From the NCBI GenBank assembly GCA_026706735.1, contig JAPOYD010000141.1, forward strand, positions 870 to 64,869: a DNA stretch of 64,000 bases, read 5' to 3'. Shown here piece after piece: positions 5,089 to 56,624 of this stretch (the first letter of the stretch is position 1; the number at the start of each line of letters is the position of its first letter). Source of the stretch: Nitrospinota bacterium (lineage in GTDB: Bacteria; UBA8248). The notes below the pieces were generated by a model. That model was not told the DNA's origin. It was given only the letters and a program-made list of their open reading frames with translations, and ran no database searches. The translations under genes and the position numbers were made by a program.

Positions 5089-5116
5089 GTAGGGACAGGT
5101 TGCGACCTGTCCCTAC
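5089..5116. repeat. REP palindrome GTAGGGACAGGTTGCGACCTGTCCCTAC
   Basis: 28-nt near-perfect palindrome. Perfect copies lie at 49433-49460 and 52385-52412. Confidence 0.9.
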
Positions 5117-18650: not shown

Positions 18651-18834
18651 GGAGGAGGTTGAAAAAGCCTCCTCACTTGGAGTTGACCACCGCCGTCATT
18701 CCGGCGAAAGCCGGAATGACGAAAAAACCGCACCGCCTCTTGTGGGGACAGGTCGCGACCTGTCCCTACAGACCATCCTCCCCGGTTGGTTACATTCGCC
18801 GAATCACGAAATCAGGACTTTTTCAACAGTCCCC
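18651..18834. repeat. composite mosaic element (same architecture as 16253-16505 but with collapsed family-1 hairpin)
   Basis: GGAGGAGGTTGAAAAAGCCTCCTC ... CGTCATTCCGGCGAAAGCCGGAATGACG ... GGGGACAGGTCGCGACCTGTCCCTACAG ... CAGGACTTTTTCAACAGTCCCC. Confidence 0.8.
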
Positions 18835-20579: not shown

Positions 20580-21578
20580 CTAGTACGGGAAATCCGTCAC
20601 CCTGGAGGCGGCCACCGCCCGGAGGAAGCTCGGATCGATGATGCTCTTCCAGTCCGGAATCTGCTTGATGTGGCCCAGCTTCTTCTTGAACGCGGAAACC
20701 TCCTGAAGGGTGTCGTAGTAACTCTTGTCGAGCCAGATTTTCAGTTTGTAGTCGTTCAGCGCCGCCTTGGCGTCCGCCGCGCTGGAGCGGGTGACCTTCT
20801 GGAACGTGGCCGCCGCCGCTGCGGGATCCGCGTTGGCCATATCCGTCGCCTCGATCAGGGCCTGCAGGAAGCGCTTCAGGGTCTTGGGTTTCTCCCTGGC
20901 GAACCCCCGGCGGACCGTCAGGTGGAAGTTGGGCTCGTAATCGCTGGCCTTGCTCGCCGCCAGGATGTGGAGCGCGTCCCCCTTGAGCTGCATCACCTTG
21001 CGCGGCCAGGGTTCCCAGAACCACATGGCCTCCACGGCGCCCTTCACCATGGTGGGGGCGGCTTCGGGCGGGGGGAGGTTGACGTGATCGAGCTTCTTGT
21101 AGTCGATGCCCCTGTTCCCGAGGAACTTGATGAACCCGAACTCTCCGCCGGTCCCGCCCATCCAGGTCACTTTCTTTCCGATGAGGTCCTTAGGACTCTT
21201 GATCGACTTTTTGGCCACCAGCTTCATGCTCTCGTTGCCCTGCGCCGTCGCGGCCACGATGATGGCGTCGATCCCCTTGGCGATGTTCGAGATGGTGGGC
21301 GGGTCGCTCTGAAAGGAGATGTCCAGTTGGCCGCTGCCGATGGCCCGCAGGCCCACCAGCGCGGTGTGGCCCATGGTGTTGGTGGTCTTGAGTCCGTGCT
21401 TCTTGAAAATCCCCTTGTCCTCGGCCAGCCAGTAGGGTATCCCCAACGAAGTGGGCTCGGTCGAGAAGCGGACCGCCCCGTCGTCGGCCGCCCCCGCCGG
21501 CCCGGGACCGACCGCCAGGAAGAGCACCAAGGCGGCAATTCCGACCATTTCCCGTATCCAGCTTCTTTCACGCATCAT
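20580..21578 (-). CDS. ABC substrate-binding protein, NMT1/THI5-like (sulfonate/nitrate/taurine type)
   Basis: Signal peptide, 332 aa, and position between the permease genes of a NitT/TauT-type system. Confidence 0.75.
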   Translation of the reverse strand: MMRERSWIREMVGIAALVLFLAVGPGPAGAADDGAVRFSTEPTSLGIPYWLAEDKGIFKKHGLKTTNTMGHTALVGLRAIGSGQLDISFQSDPPTISNIAKGIDAIIVAATAQGNESMKLVAKKSIKSPKDLIGKKVTWMGGTGGEFGFIKFLGNRGIDYKKLDHVNLPPPEAAPTMVKGAVEAMWFWEPWPRKVMQLKGDALHILAASKASDYEPNFHLTVRRGFAREKPKTLKRFLQALIEATDMANADPAAAAATFQKVTRSSAADAKAALNDYKLKIWLDKSYYDTLQEVSAFKKKLGHIKQIPDWKSIIDPSFLRAVAASRVTDFPY

Positions 21579-44427: not shown

Positions 44428-45426
44428 ATGGCTACGGACAAGGTGCGTCTCGCCTCTATCGGGCTGGGCTGGTGGGGCGGCGTTCTGGTGGAGGCCCTGA
44501 ACCGCAGCGGCGCCGGCGAGGTGGTGACGGGTTTCGCGCGCAGCGAAGACGCCCGCAAGGCGTTTTCGGAGAAACACGGTTGCCGGACGGCAGGCAGCCT
44601 GGACGATTTATTGAATGATCCCGAGGTGGAAGGCGTCATCGTCGCGACGCCCCATTCCACGCACCTGGACATGATCGCCCAGGCCGCATCGGCCGGAAAG
44701 CACGTGTTCGTCGAGAAGCCGCTCACGCTGACGGTCGATGAGGCCAAAAAGGCGGTCGAGGCGGCCTCTGCCGCGAACGTCACCTTACAAGTCGGCCACC
44801 ACCGCCGTCGCCAGGGCGCGAATCGCAGGATGCGCGAGATGATCGAGGGTGGCGAGTTGGGCGTGGTGCATCAGGTGGAAGCCAACCTCTCGCTTCCCAT
44901 GGGTTTCGAAGCAAGGGATGGCTGGCGCAACGATCCCGCTGAATGCCCGGCGGGTTCGATGACGGGCCTGGGCGTCCACATGATCGACAACCTCCAGCAC
45001 CTGGCCGGTCCCGCGAAGAAAGTGGCCGCGTTCAGCAAGAAACTGCTCGGCAAGACGAACCTCGACGATGCGACGAGCATCATCATCGAATACGAGAGCG
45101 GCCCGCTCGGGCATATCGGAAGCTCTTTCGTGGTTCCCAAGATCTGCGACACCGCGGCCTTCGGCACGAAGATGCGGGCCTACAGCGAAGAGGAGGGCGG
45201 GAAGCTCTACGTGGCCAAGGTGGGCGAGGATGCCCGCTCCGAGGTCGAGGTCGCGGGCGGAGACGCCCTCGCGGATGAGATGGATGAATTCTGCAAGTGC
45301 ATCCGGGGCGAGGCGACGCCCGAAACCGGCGGGCCCGAGGGGCTCGAGGTCGTCGCCGTGCTCGAGGCGGTCGTCCAGAGCGCGACGACGGGTCAGGTGG
45401 TGGACGTGGCGGCCCTTCGCGGATAG
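44428..45426 (+). CDS. Gfo/Idh/MocA-family oxidoreductase
   Basis: VRLASIGLGWWGG Rossmann start and EKPLTLT motif. GAGGAG lies 7 nt upstream of ATG 44428. Confidence 0.85.
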   Translation: MATDKVRLASIGLGWWGGVLVEALNRSGAGEVVTGFARSEDARKAFSEKHGCRTAGSLDDLLNDPEVEGVIVATPHSTHLDMIAQAASAGKHVFVEKPLTLTVDEAKKAVEAASAANVTLQVGHHRRRQGANRRMREMIEGGELGVVHQVEANLSLPMGFEARDGWRNDPAECPAGSMTGLGVHMIDNLQHLAGPAKKVAAFSKKLLGKTNLDDATSIIIEYESGPLGHIGSSFVVPKICDTAAFGTKMRAYSEEEGGKLYVAKVGEDARSEVEVAGGDALADEMDEFCKCIRGEATPETGGPEGLEVVAVLEAVVQSATTGQVVDVAALRG

Positions 45427-45452
45427 CTTTTGGCGTAATTTTGGAGGAAACG

Positions 45453-47699
45453 ATGGCTCAGATGACGCACGTCGGCGCGTCGCCGACGAAAGAAGACGCC
45501 CTGGCGAAAGCGGTCGGCGATACGGTCTTCGGCGATGATTTCCACATGCCGGGCGAGATTTACGGGAAAGCCGTCCGCGCCTCGATGACGCCGGCGAGGA
45601 TCAAGGAGATTGACGCAGCGGAAGCGCTCGCCCTTCCGGGCGTGCACTGCGTTTTGACGGCGAAGGACATTCCCGGCTTGAACGCGGGCCGCTACCCCGA
45701 TTACCCGGTGCTGGCCGAAGACGTCGTGGTCGACATCGGAGATGCGGTCGCGCTCGTGGCCGCCGACACGCGGGATCTGGCCGAAGAAGCGGCCTCGCTC
45801 GTGCGCGTCGTCTACGAGCCGCTGCCGGGCGCCTACGATTTCGCCGGCCTCGAGGAGGGCGAGGTGGTCTGCGACTGGAAGACGGACAAGGGCGACGTGG
45901 CGGCGGGCTTCGCCGAGGCGGACGTGATCGTGGAGAACACCTATTTTTCCGCCTGTCTGGATCACGCCTTCATCGAGCCCGAAGGCGGCGTGGCCTGGGT
46001 GGACGAGCGCGGGGTGGTGAACATCCGCGTGCCCACCCAGATGATCGAGAATTACCAGAACGTGGCGCGCACGCTGGATCTTCCGCTCAGCCGCGTGCGC
46101 TACGACTGCCCGATGCTGGGCGGCGCCTTCGGCGGGAAGGAGCACCCGCTGCTCGGCGCGTTCATGGCGCTCTTGTCAATCGAGACGGGGCGGCCCGTGC
46201 GCATGGCCTACTCGCGCGAGGAGACCATGAACACCGGCAGCAAGAAGCACCCCTTCCTCATGAAGTACAGGACGGGCGCCACGAAGGACGGAAAGCTCAC
46301 CGCCATAGAAGTCGACATCATCGGCGATGCGGGTGGCTACACAGCCAACAGCAAGGGCCTGCTCCTGGGCGCGCTCGTGGTGAGCGGCGGGCCCTATGAG
46401 ATCCCCAACGCCCGGGGCCGCGCGCGCGCGGTCAGGACGAACAACCCCTTCACCGAGGCGATGCGCGGCGTGGGCGCGAACCAGGTGTGCTTCGCCTATG
46501 AGGCGCAGATGGACGAGCTCGCGGCGCGGCTGGGGATGGACCCGCTGGAATTCCGTGAGCAAAACTTCATCGACAGGGGCGAAACCCTCATGCAGAACCA
46601 GCCGGTGCCCTCGCGCGTGATGCTGCCCGAGCTGGTCGAGGAGACGAAAAAACTCATCGGCCGCTCGGCGGGCCGCGTACCCGAGAAGGACCACGGCCCC
46701 TGGCGCGTGGGGGTCGGGTACGTCGCGAACATCGGCGGATACGGGAGGCCGAGGAACGAGGGCGAGGTCTACGTGTCCATCGACGAAGACGGCAGCGTGA
46801 GCGTGCGCACGGGCGCTTCGGACGTGGGCGCGGGCCAGACCCAGACGAACCGCCAGATCGCCGCCGAAGCCTTAGGGATAGCCCTGGAGGACGTGACGGT
46901 CACGATGTCGGATTCCCACGTCACCCCCCTGGTGGGGGTCACTGCAGGCTCACGCCAGACGATGATCTCGGGCGGCGCGTGCTACCGCGCATCGGCGGAG
47001 CTGAAAGACAGAATCCTGAAGGGCGCTGCGGAACTTCTCGAAGCGAACCCGGAGGATCTGGATATCCGCGAGGGGCGCGTTTACGTGAAAGCTGCCGAGG
47101 AGCGCGGCGTCTCCTTCGGGGAAGCCGTGGCCCAGTGCAAGAAGATGGGGGTCGACCTCCACACGGTGGGCAAGACGAAGCTCGGCGTCCACGAGTACGA
47201 GGGCAACGAGCAATACGGCGACGCCGGCGGCTGGATGGATTACGTGTTCGGCATCCACGCGGCCGAAGTCGAGGTGAACGTCGATACGGGCGAGCTTCGC
47301 GTGCTCAACTACTGGTCGGGCCACGACGTGGGCCAGTCCATCAATCTTCAGCACGTGGAAGGCCAGTTCGAGGGCGGCACGATGATGGGCGTCGGCCACG
47401 CCCTGACCGAAGAGGTCCTCACGCAAAAGGGCGCGCTCCTGAACAACGAGTTCCACGGCTACCTCATCCCCACCTCGGTGGATACGCCCGAGTGGGACAA
47501 CGTGATCCTCGAATCCGGCGAAGGCCTGGGCCCCTACGGGGCGAAAGGCATCGGCGAGCCGCCCTGCACGGCGGGCGCCGCGGCGGTGGCCTGCGCTGCG
47601 GGTCAGGCGATAGGCGCGCGCATCACGCGCATCCCCATCACGCCGGACCACGTCATGGAGGTGCTGGGACGGCTCAAGACGAACGGAAGCCGGAGCTAG
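45453..47699 (+). CDS. xanthine dehydrogenase/aldehyde oxidase-family molybdopterin-binding subunit
   Basis: 748 aa. a/b-hammerhead region (GEIYGKAVRAS...ALPGVHCVLTAKD), GGAFGGKE, and a C-terminal GIGEPP. GGAGGA lies upstream of ATG 45453. Confidence 0.85.
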   Translation: MAQMTHVGASPTKEDALAKAVGDTVFGDDFHMPGEIYGKAVRASMTPARIKEIDAAEALALPGVHCVLTAKDIPGLNAGRYPDYPVLAEDVVVDIGDAVALVAADTRDLAEEAASLVRVVYEPLPGAYDFAGLEEGEVVCDWKTDKGDVAAGFAEADVIVENTYFSACLDHAFIEPEGGVAWVDERGVVNIRVPTQMIENYQNVARTLDLPLSRVRYDCPMLGGAFGGKEHPLLGAFMALLSIETGRPVRMAYSREETMNTGSKKHPFLMKYRTGATKDGKLTAIEVDIIGDAGGYTANSKGLLLGALVVSGGPYEIPNARGRARAVRTNNPFTEAMRGVGANQVCFAYEAQMDELAARLGMDPLEFREQNFIDRGETLMQNQPVPSRVMLPELVEETKKLIGRSAGRVPEKDHGPWRVGVGYVANIGGYGRPRNEGEVYVSIDEDGSVSVRTGASDVGAGQTQTNRQIAAEALGIALEDVTVTMSDSHVTPLVGVTAGSRQTMISGGACYRASAELKDRILKGAAELLEANPEDLDIREGRVYVKAAEERGVSFGEAVAQCKKMGVDLHTVGKTKLGVHEYEGNEQYGDAGGWMDYVFGIHAAEVEVNVDTGELRVLNYWSGHDVGQSINLQHVEGQFEGGTMMGVGHALTEEVLTQKGALLNNEFHGYLIPTSVDTPEWDNVILESGEGLGPYGAKGIGEPPCTAGAAAVACAAGQAIGARITRIPITPDHVMEVLGRLKTNGSRS

Positions 47700-48145: not shown

Positions 48146-49309
48146 ATGCACACCAAACTGTCGAACGAGGGTCCGGTCCGCCGGGCACGGGTTGCATCGA
48201 GAATGTTCCGTACGTATTGCATTGCCGTTCTGCTCGCCTGCGCCGTCGCAATCGGGTGGCCGCAGGCGTCCGCTGCTGCGGCGGAGAATGGCTACCGCCT
48301 GAGCGGCCCCTACACGCAGAACAATCTCGCCATCTATCTGATCCACCGCGAAGGCCGAACAGGCGGCCCCGTACCCGTCACCCTGGGCGAGGCGATGAGG
48401 CAGGGCCTCGTCAAGGTCGTCGAAACCGGCAACGTCAGCCGGCTCATGGTCCGCAACCTGGGCTATCGTGAGGTCTTCATCCAGGCGGGCGACATCGTCA
48501 AGGGCGGCAAGCAGGACCGCGTCCTGCTCACCAGCCTGATCGTCCCCCCGCGCTCGGGCTTCATCCCCATCGGCGCCTTTTGCGTCGAGGCGGGAAGATG
48601 GGCCAGTCGCGGCCGGGAGAGGGTGGGGGAGTTTTCGACCTCCGCATACCGCATGCCCTCGAAGGCCGGCAAGATCGCGATCATGAAAAGCATGGGGCGT
48701 GAGACCGCTCCCGAAGCCGGTCGAATCGGGAGCTTGGAGGAGAGATGGCCCGGGTTGAGAATCAGGCCCGGGGCGCGGCGGCGGCCGGGCGGTCCATACC
48801 TTCAGGGCGAGGTGTGGCGCTCGGTCGCGATGATGCAGGACGCTTTGGGCCGGGCCGTGCGGGCGCAAGTCGCCGACCGGCGCTCGCGCACGAGCCTCCA
48901 GCTGTCGCTCGAGAACGAGCGCCTCGCCTCGGCCCTGGCGGGCTATGAAAACGCCTTGGGCGGGCTGCTTGAAAAACATCCACAGGCAGTGGGCTATGTC
49001 TTCGCGGTGAACGGCGAGATCAACAGCGGCGATGAGTTCGGAAGCGCCGGCCTGTTCCGGAAAGTGTGGCTGCGGCAGTTGAAGGCGGCGGCGACGGAAG
49101 CCATCGCCGAAAAAGGCGCACCGAAGCCCGGGCAGCCCACACTCGCCGAGGTCACCGCGTTTATCGATTCCGCGCGCGCCGCGAAGCCCGCTTCGAGAGC
49201 GCTGCCGGGCGGCATGAGCCTGGAGACGCGCAAGGCGAGCGGGTCGTTCTACATGGAAGTCCGGCGCGGGAACGACCACTGGGTGCACCGGAACTTCGTC
49301 GCCCAATAG
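48146..49309 (+). CDS. secreted protein of unknown function, DUF6569/ARPP-1-like (tentative)
   Basis: Signal-like CIAVLLACAVAIGWPQASA. The block VETGNVSRLMVRNLGYREVFIQAGDIVKGGKQDRVL...IPIGAFCVEAGRW resembles what I recall of DUF6569. GGGAGGA SD upstream. Confidence 0.45.
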   Translation: MHTKLSNEGPVRRARVASRMFRTYCIAVLLACAVAIGWPQASAAAAENGYRLSGPYTQNNLAIYLIHREGRTGGPVPVTLGEAMRQGLVKVVETGNVSRLMVRNLGYREVFIQAGDIVKGGKQDRVLLTSLIVPPRSGFIPIGAFCVEAGRWASRGRERVGEFSTSAYRMPSKAGKIAIMKSMGRETAPEAGRIGSLEERWPGLRIRPGARRRPGGPYLQGEVWRSVAMMQDALGRAVRAQVADRRSRTSLQLSLENERLASALAGYENALGGLLEKHPQAVGYVFAVNGEINSGDEFGSAGLFRKVWLRQLKAAATEAIAEKGAPKPGQPTLAEVTAFIDSARAAKPASRALPGGMSLETRKASGSFYMEVRRGNDHWVHRNFVAQ

Positions 49310-49392: not shown

Positions 49393-49432
49393 CGTCGATG
49401 TTTGGGAGGGGACCTCGACCTTCGAGATTTTT

Positions 49433-49460
49433 CGTAGGGACAGGTCGCGACCTGTCCCTA
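49433..49460. repeat. perfect 28-nt REP palindrome GTAGGGACAGGTCGCGACCTGTCCCTAC
   Basis: Identical to 52385-52412. Confidence 0.92.
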
Positions 49461-49509
49461 CAATCGAAAGGCGTTTTTCCACCTCCTCTTTTGGGTTCGA
49501 TTAAAAAGC

Positions 49510-49598
49510 CGTCATTCCGGCTCGATTAAAGACAGAATGAAATACCGAAATGTGCCCACCCTTATCGGCTCTGGATTCCGGCATGCGCCGGAATGACG
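49510..49598. repeat. family-1 MITE-like element with truncated left arm
   Basis: CGTCATTCCGGC, then an internal sequence homologous to copy 47804-47945 (GAATGAAATACCG[G]AATGT...ATCGGCTCTGG), then an intact right arm. Confidence 0.8.
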
Positions 49599-49784
49599 TG
49601 CGAAGACCACGAAGGACTGTCATCAACCGGCGAAAAAAGAGAATCACCGCCCTCGGAAGGGGTATTACCCTATCGGAGAGGGAGGGTATCTTCAGGCTGG
49701 ATCAGCAAGACCCGTCGCATCGCATCTTGTTCCTTATCCGTGTAGGATGCTTCCTACGCCCGCCCATTCGTAGAGACATGCGCC

Positions 49785-51631
49785 ATGCTCTCGACTCTGG
49801 ACTGGTCGCTCATCCTCGCCTATGTCGCGTTCGCCTTGATCGTCGGCGTACTCACTTCGCGCTCGGCGTCGAGGAGCCTGGCATCGTACTTCGTGGCCGG
49901 GCGCAGCCTGCCCTGGTGGTGGATAGGCACCTCCATGGTGGCGACCACGTTCGCCTCGGACACCCCCCTCGTCGTGGCCGGCATCGTCGCCAAGCGCGGC
50001 GTCTCGGGACACTGGCTCCGGTGGGCGGGGGCCATCGGCGACCGTGGGTCATCGGCAACGTGGGCGTCGCGGTATTCTTCGCTCCCCTGTGGCGGCGCGC
50101 GGGCGTGGTGACCGACGCCGAGCTCATCGAGTTGCGCTACGGCAGCGGCCCCGGCGCTTTCTTAAGGGGCTTCAAGGCCGTCTATTCCTCCCTCATCGTG
50201 AACCTCATCGTTCTGGGCTGGGTGTTCCGCGCCATGGCGAAGATAGCCGAGCCCTTCCTCAGGTGGGAGGAGATTCTGCCCCCGAACCTGTGGACGGCCG
50301 TCGAGGCGCACTGGCCCGCCGTTCTCACGATGGGAAGCGTGAACGAGAGCGTAACGGTCGCCTTGCTCGTCTTGATGATCGCTCTTTACGCGAGCGCGGG
50401 CGGAATCCGGGGCGTCATGCTCACCGATCTGTTCCAGTTCGTCATCGCGATGGCCGGCAGTTGCCTGTTCGCCTGGTACGCCGTCGAAGCCGTGGGCGGT
50501 CTTTCGGGCCTGAGCGCCAAGCTAGGCGAGATTTATGGCGCGGAGGGCGCTGCAAACATACTCTCCTTCCTCCCGCCCGAAGGCGTGGGATGGGCGGGGG
50601 CGCAGGTGATCCTCATCTACCTGTTCGTGGTCTGGTGGGCGCACAACAACGCCGACGGCGGGGGCTACATCGGCCAGAGGCTGTGCTCGGCGCGCACGCC
50701 GAGGGACGCCCAGGCGGGCGCTTTCCTGTTCACGGTCGGGAACTACGTCCTGAGGCCCTGGCCGTGGATACTCATCGGCCTCGTGAGCCTGATTCTGGTT
50801 CCCAAGGGCATGGACGCCCTGCCCGGCACGATGGAGGCCAAGATTCTCGCCGATCGCGAAGCGGCCTATCCACTCCTCATGGAGAAGCTTCTGCCCGCCG
50901 GGGTTCTGGGCCTGGTGATGGTGGGCCTTCTGGGCGCGTTCATGAGCACGGTGGACACGCACCTGAACTGGGGGATGAGCTATCTGGTGAACGATGTGTA
51001 TGCGCGCTTCATCAGAAAAGGAGCGGGCGCGCGGGAGGTCGTCTTCGTCAGCCGCCTGGGCGTCGTGATCATGGCGCTCGGCGCATTCGCCGTGGCGGGG
51101 CAAATCAAAAGCATCGAGGTCGCGTGGAAGTTCCACATCTCGCTAGGGGCGGGCCTGGGCCTTCCGGTGATCCTGCGCTGGCTGTGGTGGCGCGCGAACG
51201 CCTGGACGGAGATATCAGGGATGCTGGCCGCCGGCGCCACCGCCCTCTATCTCCACTGGGAGGGGAAGCCGCCCGCCTTTCCCGTATTGCTGGCCGCGGA
51301 GGTGGGTGTCGGCTTCGTGGCGATGCTGATCGTTACCTTCATCACGAGGCCCGCGCGTGCGGAGGTATTGCGAAATTTCTGGACGAAAGTGCGCCCGCCG
51401 GGCGTATGGGGGCGGGTGCGCGGGGAGGACAGGCGCGCAGCCCCCGTATTCGCCCTCGCCGGCCTTTGGCTGGCTTTAAGCGTCTTCGTTTTCGCCTTGA
51501 TGTTCCTGGTCGGCGCACTGCTCGTCGGCACCTGGACGCAGGCGGGCGGGCTCGCGCTCCTGGCCGGGTTCGCCCTGTGCATGGCGTGGTGGATCGACAG
51601 GCGCTATCGGTACGGAATCCTGTTCGTGTAG
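49785..51631 (+). pseudogene. sodium:solute symporter (SSS family), frameshifted near 50040-50056
   Basis: The N-terminus (ORF 49785..50111: FVAGRSLPWWWIGTSMVATTFASDTPLVVAG) continues in the frame of ORF 49550..51631 (IGNVGVAVFFAPLWRRAGVVTDAELIELRY...). Deleting 17 nt restores one ORF. Confidence 0.8.
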
Positions 51632-51840
51632 GGGGCCTCGCGAATCGGAACGAGGCGCGCAGGGGCGGTTCGCGAACCGCCCCTACACTACCGAGAAATG
51701 AAAGCGTAAAAATAGTAGGGACAGGCCCCCGTGCCTGTCCGAGGTCGCGACCTGTCCCTACAGGTTGTCCTTCTTTATGATGTTTACGACAAGGACAGGC
51801 ACGGGGGCCAATGGGGCAGCCCCGAGGAGGGGCTGCCACT
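51628..51840. repeat. REP hairpin cluster (at least four hairpins)
   Basis: GTAGGGGGCCTCGCG..., GGGGCGGTTCGCGAACCGCCCC, GTAGGGACAGGCCCCCGTGCCTGTCCGAGGTCGCGACCTGTCCCTAC, GGCAGCCCC-GAGGAG-GGGCTGCC. Confidence 0.85.
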
Positions 51841-52114
51841 ATGGGATTGTAAACAGCTTGTCATACTCCATGAACAAGCATCACCGAATTCACGTTTGAA
51901 CGCATCACCGGGATATGGGATAAAATGGTTGTGTGATGCCGCCTATGCGTCAAGGTCATCGGCAAGTGGGGGAAGTTGTCACGACCGCAATGTCACCGGG
52001 AGGGTTGGCCGAAATGTCGTCCGTCCGATTCCGGTGATCCCCGAACAGATAGCCCGCGACATCTTTCGGGCGGCGGAAGAGAAAATCCCTGCTTCGGAAT
52101 GAGGGGATGAAGCA

Positions 52115-52276
52115 ATGGAAGGCAACATCTGGATAGGGTTCATCGTGGTCGTCATCACGATCGTCGGCTCCCACACATGGCTTCACAGGGACATCGCCGA
52201 ACTCCGGGAGCGCATGGCGAAACTGGAAGGAACCTTCGAGGGTTTCATGACCTCGCAGCGCAAGTCTGCAGACTAG
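52115..52276 (+). CDS. candidate 53-aa single-TM small protein (below ORF-track cutoff)
   Basis: MEGNIWIGFIVVVITIVGSHTWLHRDIAELRERMAKLEGTFEGFMTSQRKSAD. GAGGGGA lies 8 nt upstream, and third codon positions are mostly G/C as in neighbouring genes. Confidence 0.4.
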   Translation: MEGNIWIGFIVVVITIVGSHTWLHRDIAELRERMAKLEGTFEGFMTSQRKSAD

Positions 52277-52384
52277 CCGGTTCATTCCGCTGTAACCGCC
52301 GTCTTCTTTCAAAATCTTCGAGAAATACCCTGTCTTGAGGGGGTGTCCGCGCTTCCCTACGAGGAAATGAAAGCGCAAAAAATG

Positions 52385-52412
52385 GTAGGGACAGGTCGCG
52401 ACCTGTCCCTAC
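52385..52412. repeat. perfect 28-nt REP palindrome
   Basis: GTAGGGACAGGTCGCGACCTGTCCCTAC. The preceding GAAATGAAAGCGCAAAAAATG is also shared with 51705-51724. Confidence 0.92.
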
Positions 52413-52438
52413 GGGTGAACGGTTCTCGGTTGAATCCT

Positions 52439-52915
52439 CTACTCGTCCGCCTCCTCGAACTCGGCCGAGTATTCAACTTCGATGCCGCGCTGCACGCTCT
52501 GGCTGGCCGGGCAGCCCTTCTCGTGCACGGCGAGGGCGCGCTCGGCGTCTTCGCGCTTTCCCCTGGGGATGCGGCACTTGTAGTGGACCTTGATCTTGGT
52601 GACCAGGGCCATGCCGTCCACGTTCTCGATGATGCCTTCGACTTCCGCCACCAGGTTGTCGGGGCTGCTCTTTATCCCGCGCGCATCCAGCGCGCCTCCC
52701 ATGTTGCCCGTCAGTCAGCCGGCGACGGCGGCGGCGAGGTGATCCAGCGTGGCCGGACGCTCCTCCTCGGGTTCGGCCTTGTAGAAGTTCTTGATGCCCC
52801 CGTGGATGCCGTAGGGGATCGGCTCCTCGGGGAAGGCGTCGAGATAGCCCGTCTTCATTCCCCTGCCGGGTTCCTTGACGATGCGGGCCTTGGTGACGTG
52901 AATGACTTCGCCCAT
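52439..52915 (-). CDS. OsmC/Ohr-family peroxiredoxin-like protein with in-frame UGA (candidate selenocysteine) at 52717..52715
   Basis: ORFs 52715..52984 and 52439..52702 share one frame. The joined product reads ...ATLDHLAAAVAG-U-LTGNMGGALDARGI...HEKGCPASQSV. AAGGAG lies 7 nt before ATG 52915. Confidence 0.65.
52679..52695 (-). promoter_or_regulatory. candidate bacterial SECIS hairpin GCGCGC-UGGAU-GCGCGC
   Basis: Begins 19 nt 3' of the UGA. Six G-C pairs with a G-containing apical loop. Confidence 0.4.
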
Positions 52916-53016
52916 GTTGTGCTCCTTTCCATGATAAGGTCTCGGAAAATTCCCTGAATAATGTACGCAGCCAAAGAGTAGCACCCTGCTGGAGCGAGGG
53001 GAACTCTCTCCAGTCC

Positions 53017-53925
53017 CTACGTGATGACGAAGATGGTACCCGCAACGGTCAGGAGCGCGCCCAGGACGAGCCGGGGCGTGATGTTTTCCATTTCGCGAAG
53101 GAAGAGCCAGCCCAGCACCAGCACGATGAGCGGCTGGGCGGAGACGAGAGCCGTCACGCGCACGGCCAGCGTGTGGACGAACGCGAAGTTATAGAGCGGC
53201 ACGGCGATCGAATGGCAGACGGCCGCGGCGAAAATCCACCTCCACGCCGAAGCGGGGATGGGGCCGCGCGATTCCTCGCCCCTGTCGAGCGCCATGAGAA
53301 GCATAACAGTGGCGGAACCGACCCAGAGCGCTATCGCGGCGGTGGCGAGCGGGTGGAGGTTCAAGGACGCTTTTTTGAAGAAGATCGCGGCCACGCCCCA
53401 AAGAAGCGAGGTGACGCCCGCGGAAATCCAGCCGAAGAGCTTCCACCTCGCGCCGTAGGCTTCGGCTTCGGGCTCCCGGGATGGTTCGGCCTGAACGATG
53501 AGCGTGATGCCGATGAGGAGAATCGCGAGGCCGGTGAAGATGGAGAGCGTCGGCGTCTCTCCCAGCATGAACGACGCCCCGATCGCCGTGACGACGGGAT
53601 AGGTAAGCGCGATGGGGATGGAGCGGTTCGGCCCGATGCGGTGGATGGCGCGGTAATAGAAAGAGCGCGATATGCCGATATGGAAAAAGCCCGCTAGGAA
53701 GGCGAACGCCAGCGTGGTTGCGGTTGCGCTCAGAAAATCCTCGGCGGAGATGAAGAAGAAGGCGATGAGTGTCACTATAGCGGCGTTTACGGTCGTGACG
53801 GCGGCGGTGACCTTGAGGACGGGCGCGTTCATGAGCGCGCGCTTGATGAAATAGACGAATACCGCCCATGCGGCCGATGCTATCGAGCCCAGCAATACGC
53901 CGTAGGCGTTCGATTCCAGGTTCAT
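53017..53925 (-). CDS. DMT-superfamily (EamA-like) transporter
   Basis: 302 aa with 10 hydrophobic segments in two repeats. Confidence 0.75.
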   Translation of the reverse strand: MNLESNAYGVLLGSIASAAWAVFVYFIKRALMNAPVLKVTAAVTTVNAAIVTLIAFFFISAEDFLSATATTLAFAFLAGFFHIGISRSFYYRAIHRIGPNRSIPIALTYPVVTAIGASFMLGETPTLSIFTGLAILLIGITLIVQAEPSREPEAEAYGARWKLFGWISAGVTSLLWGVAAIFFKKASLNLHPLATAAIALWVGSATVMLLMALDRGEESRGPIPASAWRWIFAAAVCHSIAVPLYNFAFVHTLAVRVTALVSAQPLIVLVLGWLFLREMENITPRLVLGALLTVAGTIFVIT

Positions 53926-53988
53926 CTCAGAAGAAGCGCGCGGGCGGATGCGCCCCGCGTCGGGACCTTCGGAAGATGGTCAATGAGG

Positions 53989-54630
53989 TTACTTGTCGGA
54001 ATTGATGCAGAGCACCGCGCGCCAGTAGTCGAAGATGTTCACGCGCTCTTGACGTTCAAGGGTCAGGTTGTTCGTTTCGAGCAGGGGCTCGAGGTCCAGG
54101 GTGGTCTCCCATCCGAATTTCTTGCAGACCCCGTTGATGAGTTCTTCGAACTTGGCCAGCAGAAGTTTCTGGCTCTTGAAATGATTGATGAAGACGACGC
54201 GTCCGCCCGGCTTGCATACGCGGCAGATCTCCGAAACGACCTTGTGCGGGTCGGGGGCCGCGCTCACGACGTAGCAGGCGGTGACGCAGTCGAAGGTATT
54301 GTCCTCATACGCCATGTTCTGCGCGTCCATCACGGCGAGTTCGACGTTGTTGAGGCCCATCTTCTCGATTTTCTCTTTCGCCTTCTCGAGCATTTTAGAA
54401 GAGATATCGATGGCGATGATCTCCGAAGTCGGCGGGTAGAGTGGCAGGGAGAGGCCTGTGCCCACGCCCACTTCGAGAAGCTTCTCGCCCGGCTTCAGGT
54501 CGAGCAGGTCGACGCCGACATTTCTGCCTTCACTGAACACGTGCTTGAAGACCAGGTCGTAGAATTTCCCCCATCGATCGTATATCTTGATGACGGCGTC
54601 CGGCGATTCCACTTTGCATCCCTCAGGCAA
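53989..54630 (-). CDS. class I SAM-dependent methyltransferase (Methyltransf_11 type; PmtA/UbiE-like)
   Basis: Motif I LLEVGVGTG and motif post-I IIAIDIS, then CKPGGRVVF. Confidence 0.8.
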   Translation of the reverse strand: MPEGCKVESPDAVIKIYDRWGKFYDLVFKHVFSEGRNVGVDLLDLKPGEKLLEVGVGTGLSLPLYPPTSEIIAIDISSKMLEKAKEKIEKMGLNNVELAVMDAQNMAYEDNTFDCVTACYVVSAAPDPHKVVSEICRVCKPGGRVVFINHFKSQKLLLAKFEELINGVCKKFGWETTLDLEPLLETNNLTLERQERVNIFDYWRAVLCINSDK

Positions 54631-54812
54631 GTTCCCGCGCTCGCAATTACACGGGAATCAGGTGGGCGATGGCCGCACCATGCGCGGCTGTATCAGGCGT
54701 ATTCCCCGGATCGGAGGAACCTTCTTCCTTCCAACTTCGGAAGATATGCCATATTGTAAGGAAAATTAAAATCTTTTTCCACATCAATCGGCAATGATGA
54801 ATACGGGAGAAC

Positions 54813-55610
54813 ATGATCATGACGTGGGAGACAATCGATTTCGATCTCGAGGAAGAGGGCGGCTTGGCCCTCGTTCGGCTCAATCGCCCCGGGGCGCTCA
54901 ACGCGCTCGACCGCCAGATGGCGAAAGACCTCTACGAGGTTTGCGAAAGATGCAATGAGCCCGACGTCCGCGCGATGGTCCTGAGCGGGGCGGGGCGCGC
55001 TTTCTCCGCCGGCGGGGACTTGAAGGAGATCGAGGCGCGCATCCGGGCGGGCGATCGGATGGAGGAGTTCCTCTGGCCGGACTACCAGAAATCGCTGGCG
55101 AAGCTCCACGAGGTCCGCTGCCCGACGATAGCGGCCGTCCACGGTTTCGCCGTGGGCGCAGGGTGTGATATCGCATTGGCCTGCGACATCCGCCTCGCGG
55201 GCGCAGGCGCTTCTTTCGGGCAGGTCTACTCCAGGATCGGACTCGTCCCCGATTGCGGGGGAACGTTTTTCCTGCCCCGCGTCGTGGGCAGCGCGAAAGC
55301 CCTGGAGTTGATTTTGACGGGCGACGTCATCGACGCGGAGGCGGCGCTCGCCATCGGTCTCGTCCGCTCGGTTCATCCCGATGACGCGCTCATCGAAGAA
55401 GCGACTGCCCTGGGACGAAAGCTCGCCGGCGGCCCCTCGATTGCGCTTCGGGCGGCGAAGAAGCTGATTCGCGCCTCAGGCGGCCTGGACGTGGCGGCGG
55501 CGCTTCGCGCGGAAGCGGGCGCGCAGGCCGAGACGGTCGCCAGTTCGGATTTTCGGGAGGGGATCAGCGCCTTTCTGGAGAAGCGAAAACCCAAATTCCA
55601 GGGCAAGTGA
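54813..55610 (+). CDS. enoyl-CoA hydratase/isomerase family protein
   Basis: LVRLNRPGALNAL, FSAGGDL, GAGCDIALACD. Confidence 0.88.
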   Translation: MIMTWETIDFDLEEEGGLALVRLNRPGALNALDRQMAKDLYEVCERCNEPDVRAMVLSGAGRAFSAGGDLKEIEARIRAGDRMEEFLWPDYQKSLAKLHEVRCPTIAAVHGFAVGAGCDIALACDIRLAGAGASFGQVYSRIGLVPDCGGTFFLPRVVGSAKALELILTGDVIDAEAALAIGLVRSVHPDDALIEEATALGRKLAGGPSIALRAAKKLIRASGGLDVAAALRAEAGAQAETVASSDFREGISAFLEKRKPKFQGK

Positions 55611-55655
55611 ACGAGCTCCGGCGATTCGGAGCCTCCGCCATATAAAGGACGCTTC

Positions 55656-56624
55656 TTGGGCATGGAAGCATATTTCGCGAGTTTTCCCGTCTGGATGAAT
55701 TTCATTTTCTTCGCTGCGGGGCTCCTCATCATCACGAAAGGCGCCGACTGGTTCACCGACGGCGCGGTCGGAATCGCCGAAACCACGGGGGTTCCCAAAG
55801 TTGTCGTCGGCGCCACGCTGGTGAGCCTGGCGACGACGGCGCCCGAGTTCAGCGTTTCCGTCATTGCGGCCTGGCTGGACCATCCGGCCACGTCCGTGGG
55901 CAATGCGGTCGGCTCTACCATCTGCAACATCGGGCTCATTCTGGCGGTGGCGTTCCTGCTCGAGCCTGTATCCCTTTCCAGGGAAGACGTTATGCGCAAA
56001 GGCCTGTTCATGATGGCGATGGGCTTGTTGCTTGTTCTTCTGGGCTGGGATGGGCGAATCACCAGGATCGAAGGTCTGGTTTTGTTCGCCCTGGTGCCCG
56101 TTTTTCTCTGGTTCGGCATGAAGCGGGGAACGTGGTCGGATTTCGATTTCGGGGCTACGATGACCGACCGGGAAATACACCATGTCGGGCTGCGGTTCAT
56201 CGCCGGTTCGATCCTGGTTGTTTTCGGCAGCGTGCTGCTCGTGCAGAGCGCGGTGCATCTGGCCCGAGCCATGGGCGTTCCCGAACTGGTCATCGCTCTT
56301 ACGCTGGTGGCTATCGGCACGTCACTTCCTGAATTGATCACGGCGGTTTCCGCATCCTGGCAGGGTCATGGAGACATGGCCGTCGGTAACGTGCTGGGCG
56401 CGAACGTCCTGAACATCACGTGGGTTCTCGGCGGGGCGTCGCTCATTGCGCCCCTCGGGATCGAGCGGCAGTCGTTCGTTCTGGATTTCCCGTTCATGCT
56501 CTTGCTCATGGTGATGTTTTTGCTTCTCGCCTTATGGAAGCGTGGTATGGGACGCAGGGCGGGACTTATGTTTCTTACGGGATACGTGTGCTATCTGGCT
56601 TTGATGTTCATCTACTTTGTTTGA
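55656..56624 (+). CDS. Ca2+/Na+ antiporter (CaCA family, YrbG-like)
   Basis: Two alpha-repeats: GATLVSLATTAPEF and LVAIGTSLPEL. TTG 55656 or ATG 55662 is the start. Confidence 0.85.
   Translation: MGMEAYFASFPVWMNFIFFAAGLLIITKGADWFTDGAVGIAETTGVPKVVVGATLVSLATTAPEFSVSVIAAWLDHPATSVGNAVGSTICNIGLILAVAFLLEPVSLSREDVMRKGLFMMAMGLLLVLLGWDGRITRIEGLVLFALVPVFLWFGMKRGTWSDFDFGATMTDREIHHVGLRFIAGSILVVFGSVLLVQSAVHLARAMGVPELVIALTLVAIGTSLPELITAVSASWQGHGDMAVGNVLGANVLNITWVLGGASLIAPLGIERQSFVLDFPFMLLLMVMFLLLALWKRGMGRRAGLMFLTGYVCYLALMFIYFV

Follow-up and report, generated by a model that had tools for sequence, protein, structure and literature searches.

The locus at positions 52439..52915 of the window (the whole 64-kb stretch of DNA analysed here) is very probably a single gene for a protein of 158 residues from the Ohr/OsmC superfamily, in which the UGA at codon 67 is decoded as selenocysteine (Sec, or U). 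The locus combines one conserved frame that continues through the UGA with a Sec/Cys pair in the catalytic columns, a SECIS-like hairpin and an OsmC fold. The gene and its coding elements are as follows:

52439..52915, minus strand: OsmC-like gene, a very probable selenoprotein gene, of 158 codons plus a TAG stop at 52441..52439, with Sec as codon 67
52922..52927, minus strand: Shine-Dalgarno sequence AAGGAG, read from the sequence, with a spacer of 6 nt to the ATG at 52915..52913
52715..52717, minus strand: in-frame UGA at the site of the peroxidatic Cys, proposed to encode Sec67
52511..52513, minus strand: TGC codon for Cys135, which lies in an invariant C-P-x-S-Q-S-V motif and is proposed as the resolving Cys

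A first-pass annotation, made from the sequence alone, had described two minus-strand ORFs in one frame, split by a TGA and four sense codons. The strand sequence and the ORF list agree with this description: ORFs 52715..52984 and 52439..52702 share their frame, the codons between the TGA (52717..52715) and the next ATG are CTG ACG GGC AAC, and that TGA is the sole interruption from the ATG at 52915..52913 to the TAG at 52441..52439. The start at ATG 52915 behind an AAGGAG and the joined product of 158 residues, both proposed in the same annotation, also stand, with a measured spacer of 6 nt. The read-through product is ...LDHLAAAVAG-U-LTGNMGGALDARGI...HEKGCPASQSV..., its direct translation being ...RPATLDHLAAAVAG*LTGNMGGALDARGI...VHEKGCPASQSV..., and the neighbourhood of residue 67 reads ...AAAVAG-U-LTGNMGGALDAR.... 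Homologues begin at the same MGEVIHV start as the window protein.

Comparison of the joined protein to the Pfam OsmC profile (PF02566), a check that the first-pass annotation had proposed, yielded 48.8 bits over residues 53-149, with a gathering score of 27.5 and E = 1e-12, when U was written as C. The best PDB sequence matches were the OsmC proteins from T. thermophilus (1ukk) and E. coli (1qwi, 1nye). In the alignments to 1ukk and 1qwi, residue 67 falls on the first catalytic Cys (AAAHAGC / AAHAAC) and Cys135 on the Cys of GCPVS; U67 and C135 lie at a distance of 68 residues, and neither varies among 86 unique family proteins. Likewise, two full-length homologues with 47-48% identity, P0022 and P0031, show AVAG-C-LTG and have a TGC codon in the column of U. 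Both the alignment to 1ukk/1qwi and these TGC homologues put the UGA in the first (peroxidatic) Cys column, where it had been placed from the sequence alone, and the CP cysteine mentioned in the same claim is Cys135, on the GCP Cys of the OsmC structures. The Cys homologue P0022, with 48% identity to the window protein, was modelled with AF2 (pLDDT 77.6), and the model shows the expected topology of three strands, a helix, two strands, a helix and a strand (beta3-alpha-beta2-alpha-beta). In a Foldseek search of the PDB with this model, all 50 listed matches were OsmC/Ohr proteins, 49 of them at E <= 0.001, with a probability of 1.00 and TM values of 0.43-0.57.

A protein-database search returned 338 relatives, and 114 of the best 120 of these 338 are pieces of 86-93 amino acids that start just after the TGA, as is typical when gene callers take a Sec codon for a stop; among the matches listed, the records from NCBI give this branch as fragments of 86-90 amino acids. 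At the DNA level, a scan of one genome per GTDB species retrieved 35 loci with 81-97% identity, labelled Nitrospinota or Nitrospinaceae, Tectomicrobia, and Rokubacteria/Methylomirabilota, and a metagenome scan retrieved 80 further loci with identity down to 59%, for a total of 115 loci, of which 113 were parsable. The branch occurs in soil and in sponge-type metagenomes. TGA is present at this codon in 113/113 parsable loci, coming from two independent collections and spanning 59-97% protein identity, and no Cys form was found among the relatives with more than ~50% identity to the window protein.

A bare stop codon could also be the mark of a pseudogene, or of a TGC or TGT codon that was misread during sequencing or assembly, and frame-shifted assemblies of this gene do exist, as exemplified by P0001. 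However, the assemblies with TGA are independent and come from differing samples, technologies and phyla, and both halves of the gene, across the TGA, are under purifying, protein-level selection. The conserved TGA and its translated flanks thus exclude a pseudogene or an assembly error, to which we assign a negligible probability. Among the individual records, P0001 is a frame-shift chimera that enters the +1 frame around the TGA, P0002 has a Gly in place of U, which may stem from gene calling under code 25, and P0028 has an Arg at that position.

The prevalence of C-terminal pieces of 86-93 amino acids in gene calls (114 of the best 120 matches) could alternatively reflect a split gene, in which an N-terminal peptide of 66 residues ends at the TGA and a C-terminal peptide of ~87-91 residues is re-initiated, with both assembling non-covalently; in a group of relatives designated clade 2, described below, the TGA is always followed by ATG, which could suggest translational coupling. 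Yet the break falls exactly at the catalytic Cys column, where the Cys homologues are uninterrupted, so a split would remove the peroxidatic residue, and it would give the conserved hairpin no role. The position following U holds either Leu (CTG or CTC) or Met, as would be expected of an internal helix position, within a local motif U-[L/M]-T-G, and several members, including L043, L046 and L052, have no ATG anywhere in the C-terminal half (LTGTLGG...). Conservation points in the same direction: 48 positions are at least 98% conserved among the 86 unique proteins, and these include H6, G36-x-H38-G39-G40 and T56-L57-D58, together with V64-A65-G66-U67-x-T69-G70 and C135-P136-x-S138-Q139-S140-V141. 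Thr69 and Gly70 are among these positions and, in clade 1, they lie upstream of the first ATG after the TGA and show synonymous changes only (Thr69 codons: ACC 43, ACG 32, ACT 1, ACA 1), which indicates that they are translated in this frame. The first-pass annotation had left room for homologues in which the halves are separate genes; in the homologues the halves are always contiguous and in frame around the TGA. With the TGA conserved and its flanks translated, a split gene is very unlikely, and we retain the reading of a single gene with Sec at codon 67.

TGA terminates many genes of the window whose codon-position GC pattern is normal, indicating that it is an ordinary stop in this genome. 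A naive scan of the window for in-frame TGA codons gave 178 noisy candidates, and a filter on codon-position GC left the OsmC-like TGA only, plus one antisense artefact at 21310. These results bear on another explanation, whereby near-cognate decoding would place a standard amino acid, Cys or Trp, at the UGA, or the organism would use an altered code, with the hairpin merely stimulating read-through. The Gly of P0002, resembling a code-25 call, would fit such a reading, as would the fact that the Sec machinery was not found within the window. Against it count the many coding-like genes of the window ending in TGA, the single in-frame TGA of the window that lies inside coding-like sequence, a hairpin that fits a SelB-type bacterial SECIS (bSECIS) by loop size, loop G and spacing, and the richness in selenoproteins reported for MAGs with the same NCBI label (PMC13326102); decoding as a standard amino acid therefore keeps only a small probability beside decoding as Sec.

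With respect to the Sec machinery, Pfam and NCBIfam scans of the ~39 likely genes of the window revealed no selA, selB or selD and housekeeping functions only; the window genes include those for MetRS, CysRS, GroEL, IspD, transporters and a Mo-hydroxylase. ARAGORN detected no tRNA genes in the window and no tRNA-Sec in the 115 related loci, where it identified two tRNA-Gly only, and tblastn comparisons of these loci with E. coli SelA and SelD sequences gave no match. Neither the 64 kb of the window nor the flanks of the 115 loci showed any Sec machinery or a further selenoprotein gene. The BSepDB paper ranks MAGs with the names "Nitrospinota" or "Nitrospinaceae bacterium" (GTDB phylum UBA8248), reported to have 48-54 selenoprotein genes, among the ten bacteria richest in them (PMC13326102); UBA8248 clusters with Tectomicrobia in GTDB (PMC10839748), and a Methylomirabilota MAG has 63 predicted selenoproteins (PMC13188914). 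To judge from these names, the organism of the window would be part of a selenoprotein-rich lineage.

Elsewhere in the window, positions 45297-47699 encode the large subunit of a Mo-hydroxylase of the xanthine-dehydrogenase (XDH) family, and a protein with an ARPP-1 domain follows at 48146-49309. No link of the former to selenium emerges, the selenium-dependent XDH model being just one of many sub-threshold matches.

Two RNA elements are predicted downstream of the UGA, the second one enclosing the first:

52679..52695, minus strand: proposed bacterial SECIS core, with a 6-bp GCGCGC/GCGCGC stem and a UGGAU loop
52710..52707 with 52663..52660, minus strand: possible lower helix CGGG/CCCG, predicted, enclosing the hairpin

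The first-pass annotation had noticed the six G-C pairs, the UGGAU loop and the distance of 19 nt from the UGA, and had suggested a possible SECIS. Sequence and folding bear out the hairpin, which consists of GCGCGC (52695..52690), UGGAU (52689..52685) and GCGCGC (52684..52679), with its stem beginning exactly 19 nt past the UGA and its loop 25 nt past it. It is the dominant local structure in folding predictions, and its core of 24 nt has a free energy of -13.0 kcal/mol, with 2/200 shuffles folding as well, whereas stretches of 60-71 nt around the hairpin fold no better than shuffles (z = +0.74, -0.55). The published constraints for a bSECIS are a loop of 3-9 nt with a G among its first two nucleotides, an upper stem of 4-16 bp, a distance from UGA to loop of 16-37 nt and an MFE <= -7.5 kcal/mol (PMC13188914). 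The window hairpin lies within all of them, with a 5-nt loop, a G at position 2, 6 bp, 25 nt and -13.0 kcal/mol, and this supports the suggested SECIS.

Among 77 unique clade-1 genes, the synonymous entropy of codons 73-78 is 0.14 bits, compared with a gene mean of 0.76; the hairpin codons are the lowest 6-codon bin of the gene, and the codons directly flanking them vary freely. We saw no compensatory double substitutions in the hairpin stem of either clade, the stems being nearly invariant, so support at the RNA level comes from synonymous-site conservation and G-U-compatible changes, not from covariation. The Cys-form gene lacks the 6-bp hairpin, although this is weak evidence because it concerns a single lineage. 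Over the whole window, Rfam gave no match at gathering thresholds, and only noise for 52560-52780 at E <= 10; as the scan returned no SECIS family, this result is uninformative for a SECIS. Regarding the possible lower helix, its pattern across relatives is CSGG with CCSG, and its middle pair joins the third positions of the Thr69 and Pro85 codons (CG 37, GC 21, UA 1, unpaired 18). This pair is formed in 59/77 sequences, compared with 37.6 expected, a difference confounded by phylogeny, which the two pair types follow.

Clade 2 comprises 23 unique genes (loci L090-L115) that are ~60% identical to the window protein and have the motif U-M-T-G. These genes do not contain the clade-1 hairpin; instead, they have a different one, CGCUAGC / CGGGGC / GCUAGCG, with 7-9 bp, starting 10 nt after the UGA and with its loop at 17 nt, whose -14.9 kcal/mol and remaining features fall within the bSECIS constraints. 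It is thus ~9 nt nearer the UGA than the clade-1 hairpin, to which it is not homologous. The two Leu codons in the clade-2 stem are CTA or CTG only (46/46), preserving A-U or G-U pairs; other Leu codons of these genes favour CTC, whereas the stem uses the rare CTA. A model with a shared register was also considered, in which clade 2 would form a 4-bp GCGC/GCGC hairpin at the clade-1 register, and was rejected because this hairpin is broken in 4/23 clade-2 sequences, whereas the 7-bp hairpin is always kept. The hairpins of both clades look like a turnover of the SECIS within the coding region. A broader proposal, which we put forward tentatively and with more doubt than confidence, is that these genes might define a distinct, near-always-Sec branch of Ohr/OsmC proteins, not catalogued as selenoproteins and with an atypical Asp58/GxHGG site, whose SECIS was rebuilt at a register of 25 or 17 nt around a fixed UGA.

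Sequence scores with subfamily models were low. The window protein obtained 28.2 bits with the OsmC model TIGR03562 (cut-off 85.8), 20.5 bits with the Ohr model TIGR03561 (cut-off 88.85) and 17.4 bits with NCBIfam NF041052, "OsmC-related (seleno)protein" (cut-off 95). Likewise, its clade-2 and Cys-form relatives stay below the cut-offs of the OsmC and Ohr models and show 13.9-32.1 bits with NF041052, all below 95. The position of the canonical Glu aligns next to, or is held by, an invariant Asp58; the Gly-rich loop contains an invariant G36-x-H38-G39-G40 and no invariant Arg, and Arg53 is conserved in clade 1 only. The window protein thus appears as a separate branch of PF02566, outside the family for which NCBIfam has its model of OsmC-related selenoproteins.

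The Sargasso Sea selenoproteome contained three sequences of OsmC-like selenoproteins, assigned to COG1765 and with a motif UxxT (Zhang, Fomenko & Gladyshev 2005; PMC1088965), and later reviews list such proteins (PMC9312934, PMC13188914); the first-pass annotation had named this metagenomic precedent correctly. NF041052 is probably the model of this Sargasso Sea/GOS family (COG1765/PF02566). The window gene resembles that family in its OsmC domain, in having Sec instead of the first catalytic Cys of the central helix, in a SECIS hairpin inside the coding region just downstream and in the existence of Cys homologues. It differs from it in its motif, U-[L/M]-T-G instead of UxxT, in falling below the NF041052 cut-off and in its distribution, the window branch coming from soil and sponge-type metagenomes and from MAGs with the labels Nitrospinota, Tectomicrobia and Rokubacteria. 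Judged from the sequence, the window gene would work like the known OsmC-like selenoproteins, yet it lies outside the modelled family.

Among characterized proteins, the OsmC peroxidases (1qwi/1nye, 1ukk; TIGR03562) are the best matches in both sequence and structure, with the same topology and with a catalytic pair, one member in helix alpha-1 and the other in the CP motif, spaced by 68 residues. Unlike them, the window protein has Sec for Cys and Asp58 for the catalytic Glu, and its branch shows G-x-H-G-G in place of the invariant loop Arg and scores below the TIGR03562 cut-off. Ohr proteins (TIGR03561) share the fold and the logic of a peroxidatic (Cp) and a resolving (Cr) Cys, with an expected cycle that proceeds from an oxidised Cp to a Cp-Cr bond and then to reduction by a dithiol or lipoyl group; for instance, XfOhr has Cp Cys61, Cr Cys125, Arg19 and Glu51 (PMC5384416, PMC5962072). 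In contrast to Ohr, the window protein has Sec at Cp and no evident equivalent of the conserved Arg19 loop, and it reaches 20.5 of the 88.85 bits of the Ohr model.

In Ohr/OsmC proteins, Cp is in the central helix and Cr ~60 residues further on, with an Arg and a Glu completing the active site (PMC5384416), and lipoyl groups serve as reductants of the oxidised Cp-Cr pair (PMC5384416, PMC5962072). By analogy, the hairpin 19 nt downstream of the UGA would act as a bacterial SECIS and recruit SelB with Sec-tRNA(Sec), and the ribosome would insert Sec rather than terminate. Sec67, placed in the central helix at the peroxidatic-Cys site of Ohr/OsmC, would then attack a hydroperoxide, giving a selenenic acid that Cys135 of the CP motif would resolve to a selenenylsulfide; a dithiol donor, for instance the kind of lipoylated protein that serves Ohr and OsmC, would in turn reduce this bond. 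Peroxidase activity is thus inferred, as Asp58 stands for Glu, no invariant Arg is present in the loop and the protein stays below the cut-offs of the OsmC and Ohr subfamily models. In "third-group" Ohr/OsmC proteins, without Arg and Glu, peroxidase activity is uncertain (PMC5384416). In balance, we consider it moderately probable that the window protein is a hydroperoxide reductase.

Around the gene, the window is syntenic with L001, from an "uncultured Nitrospinaceae bacterium", with 87-93% nucleotide identity across ~6 kb. In a comparison of L015 with window positions 49401-56000, the OsmC-like gene has 90.8% DNA identity and both flanks 74.5-79%, a pattern that suggests a transfer event or, alternatively, an unusually strong constraint on the gene, some of it acting on the RNA. 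The gene is followed by one further element:

52377..52412, minus strand: intrinsic-terminator-like element, a 12-bp palindrome and then a T-run, 26 nt past the stop codon

A perfect palindrome of 28 nt, GTAGGGACAGGTCGCGACCTGTCCCTAC, has four copies in the window, at 5089-5116, 18742-18769, 49434-49461 and 52385-52412, with 0-1 mismatch and none expected by chance. The last of these copies is the one that precedes the T-run behind the OsmC-like gene and resembles an intrinsic terminator; the repeat may represent a dispersed element of REP-like or terminator type.

The window gene leaves the current understanding of Sec decoding and of OsmC chemistry unchanged. In public records, among the matches listed, it is split or truncated to a fragment of 86-93 amino acids, named "OsmC family" or "hypothetical", and this annotation loses both the catalytic half and the identity as a selenoprotein. 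A family model with U67 would mend hundreds of gene calls in Nitrospinota-like bacteria, Tectomicrobia and Rokubacteria/Methylomirabilota, and the gene adds a candidate Sec-dependent hydroperoxide reductase to lineages reported to be rich in selenoproteins. If the proposed replacement of one hairpin by another is true, the branch would be a compact example from nature of one SECIS giving way to another within a coding sequence, where two hairpin solutions around one fixed UGA would show how a SECIS evolves under coding constraint.
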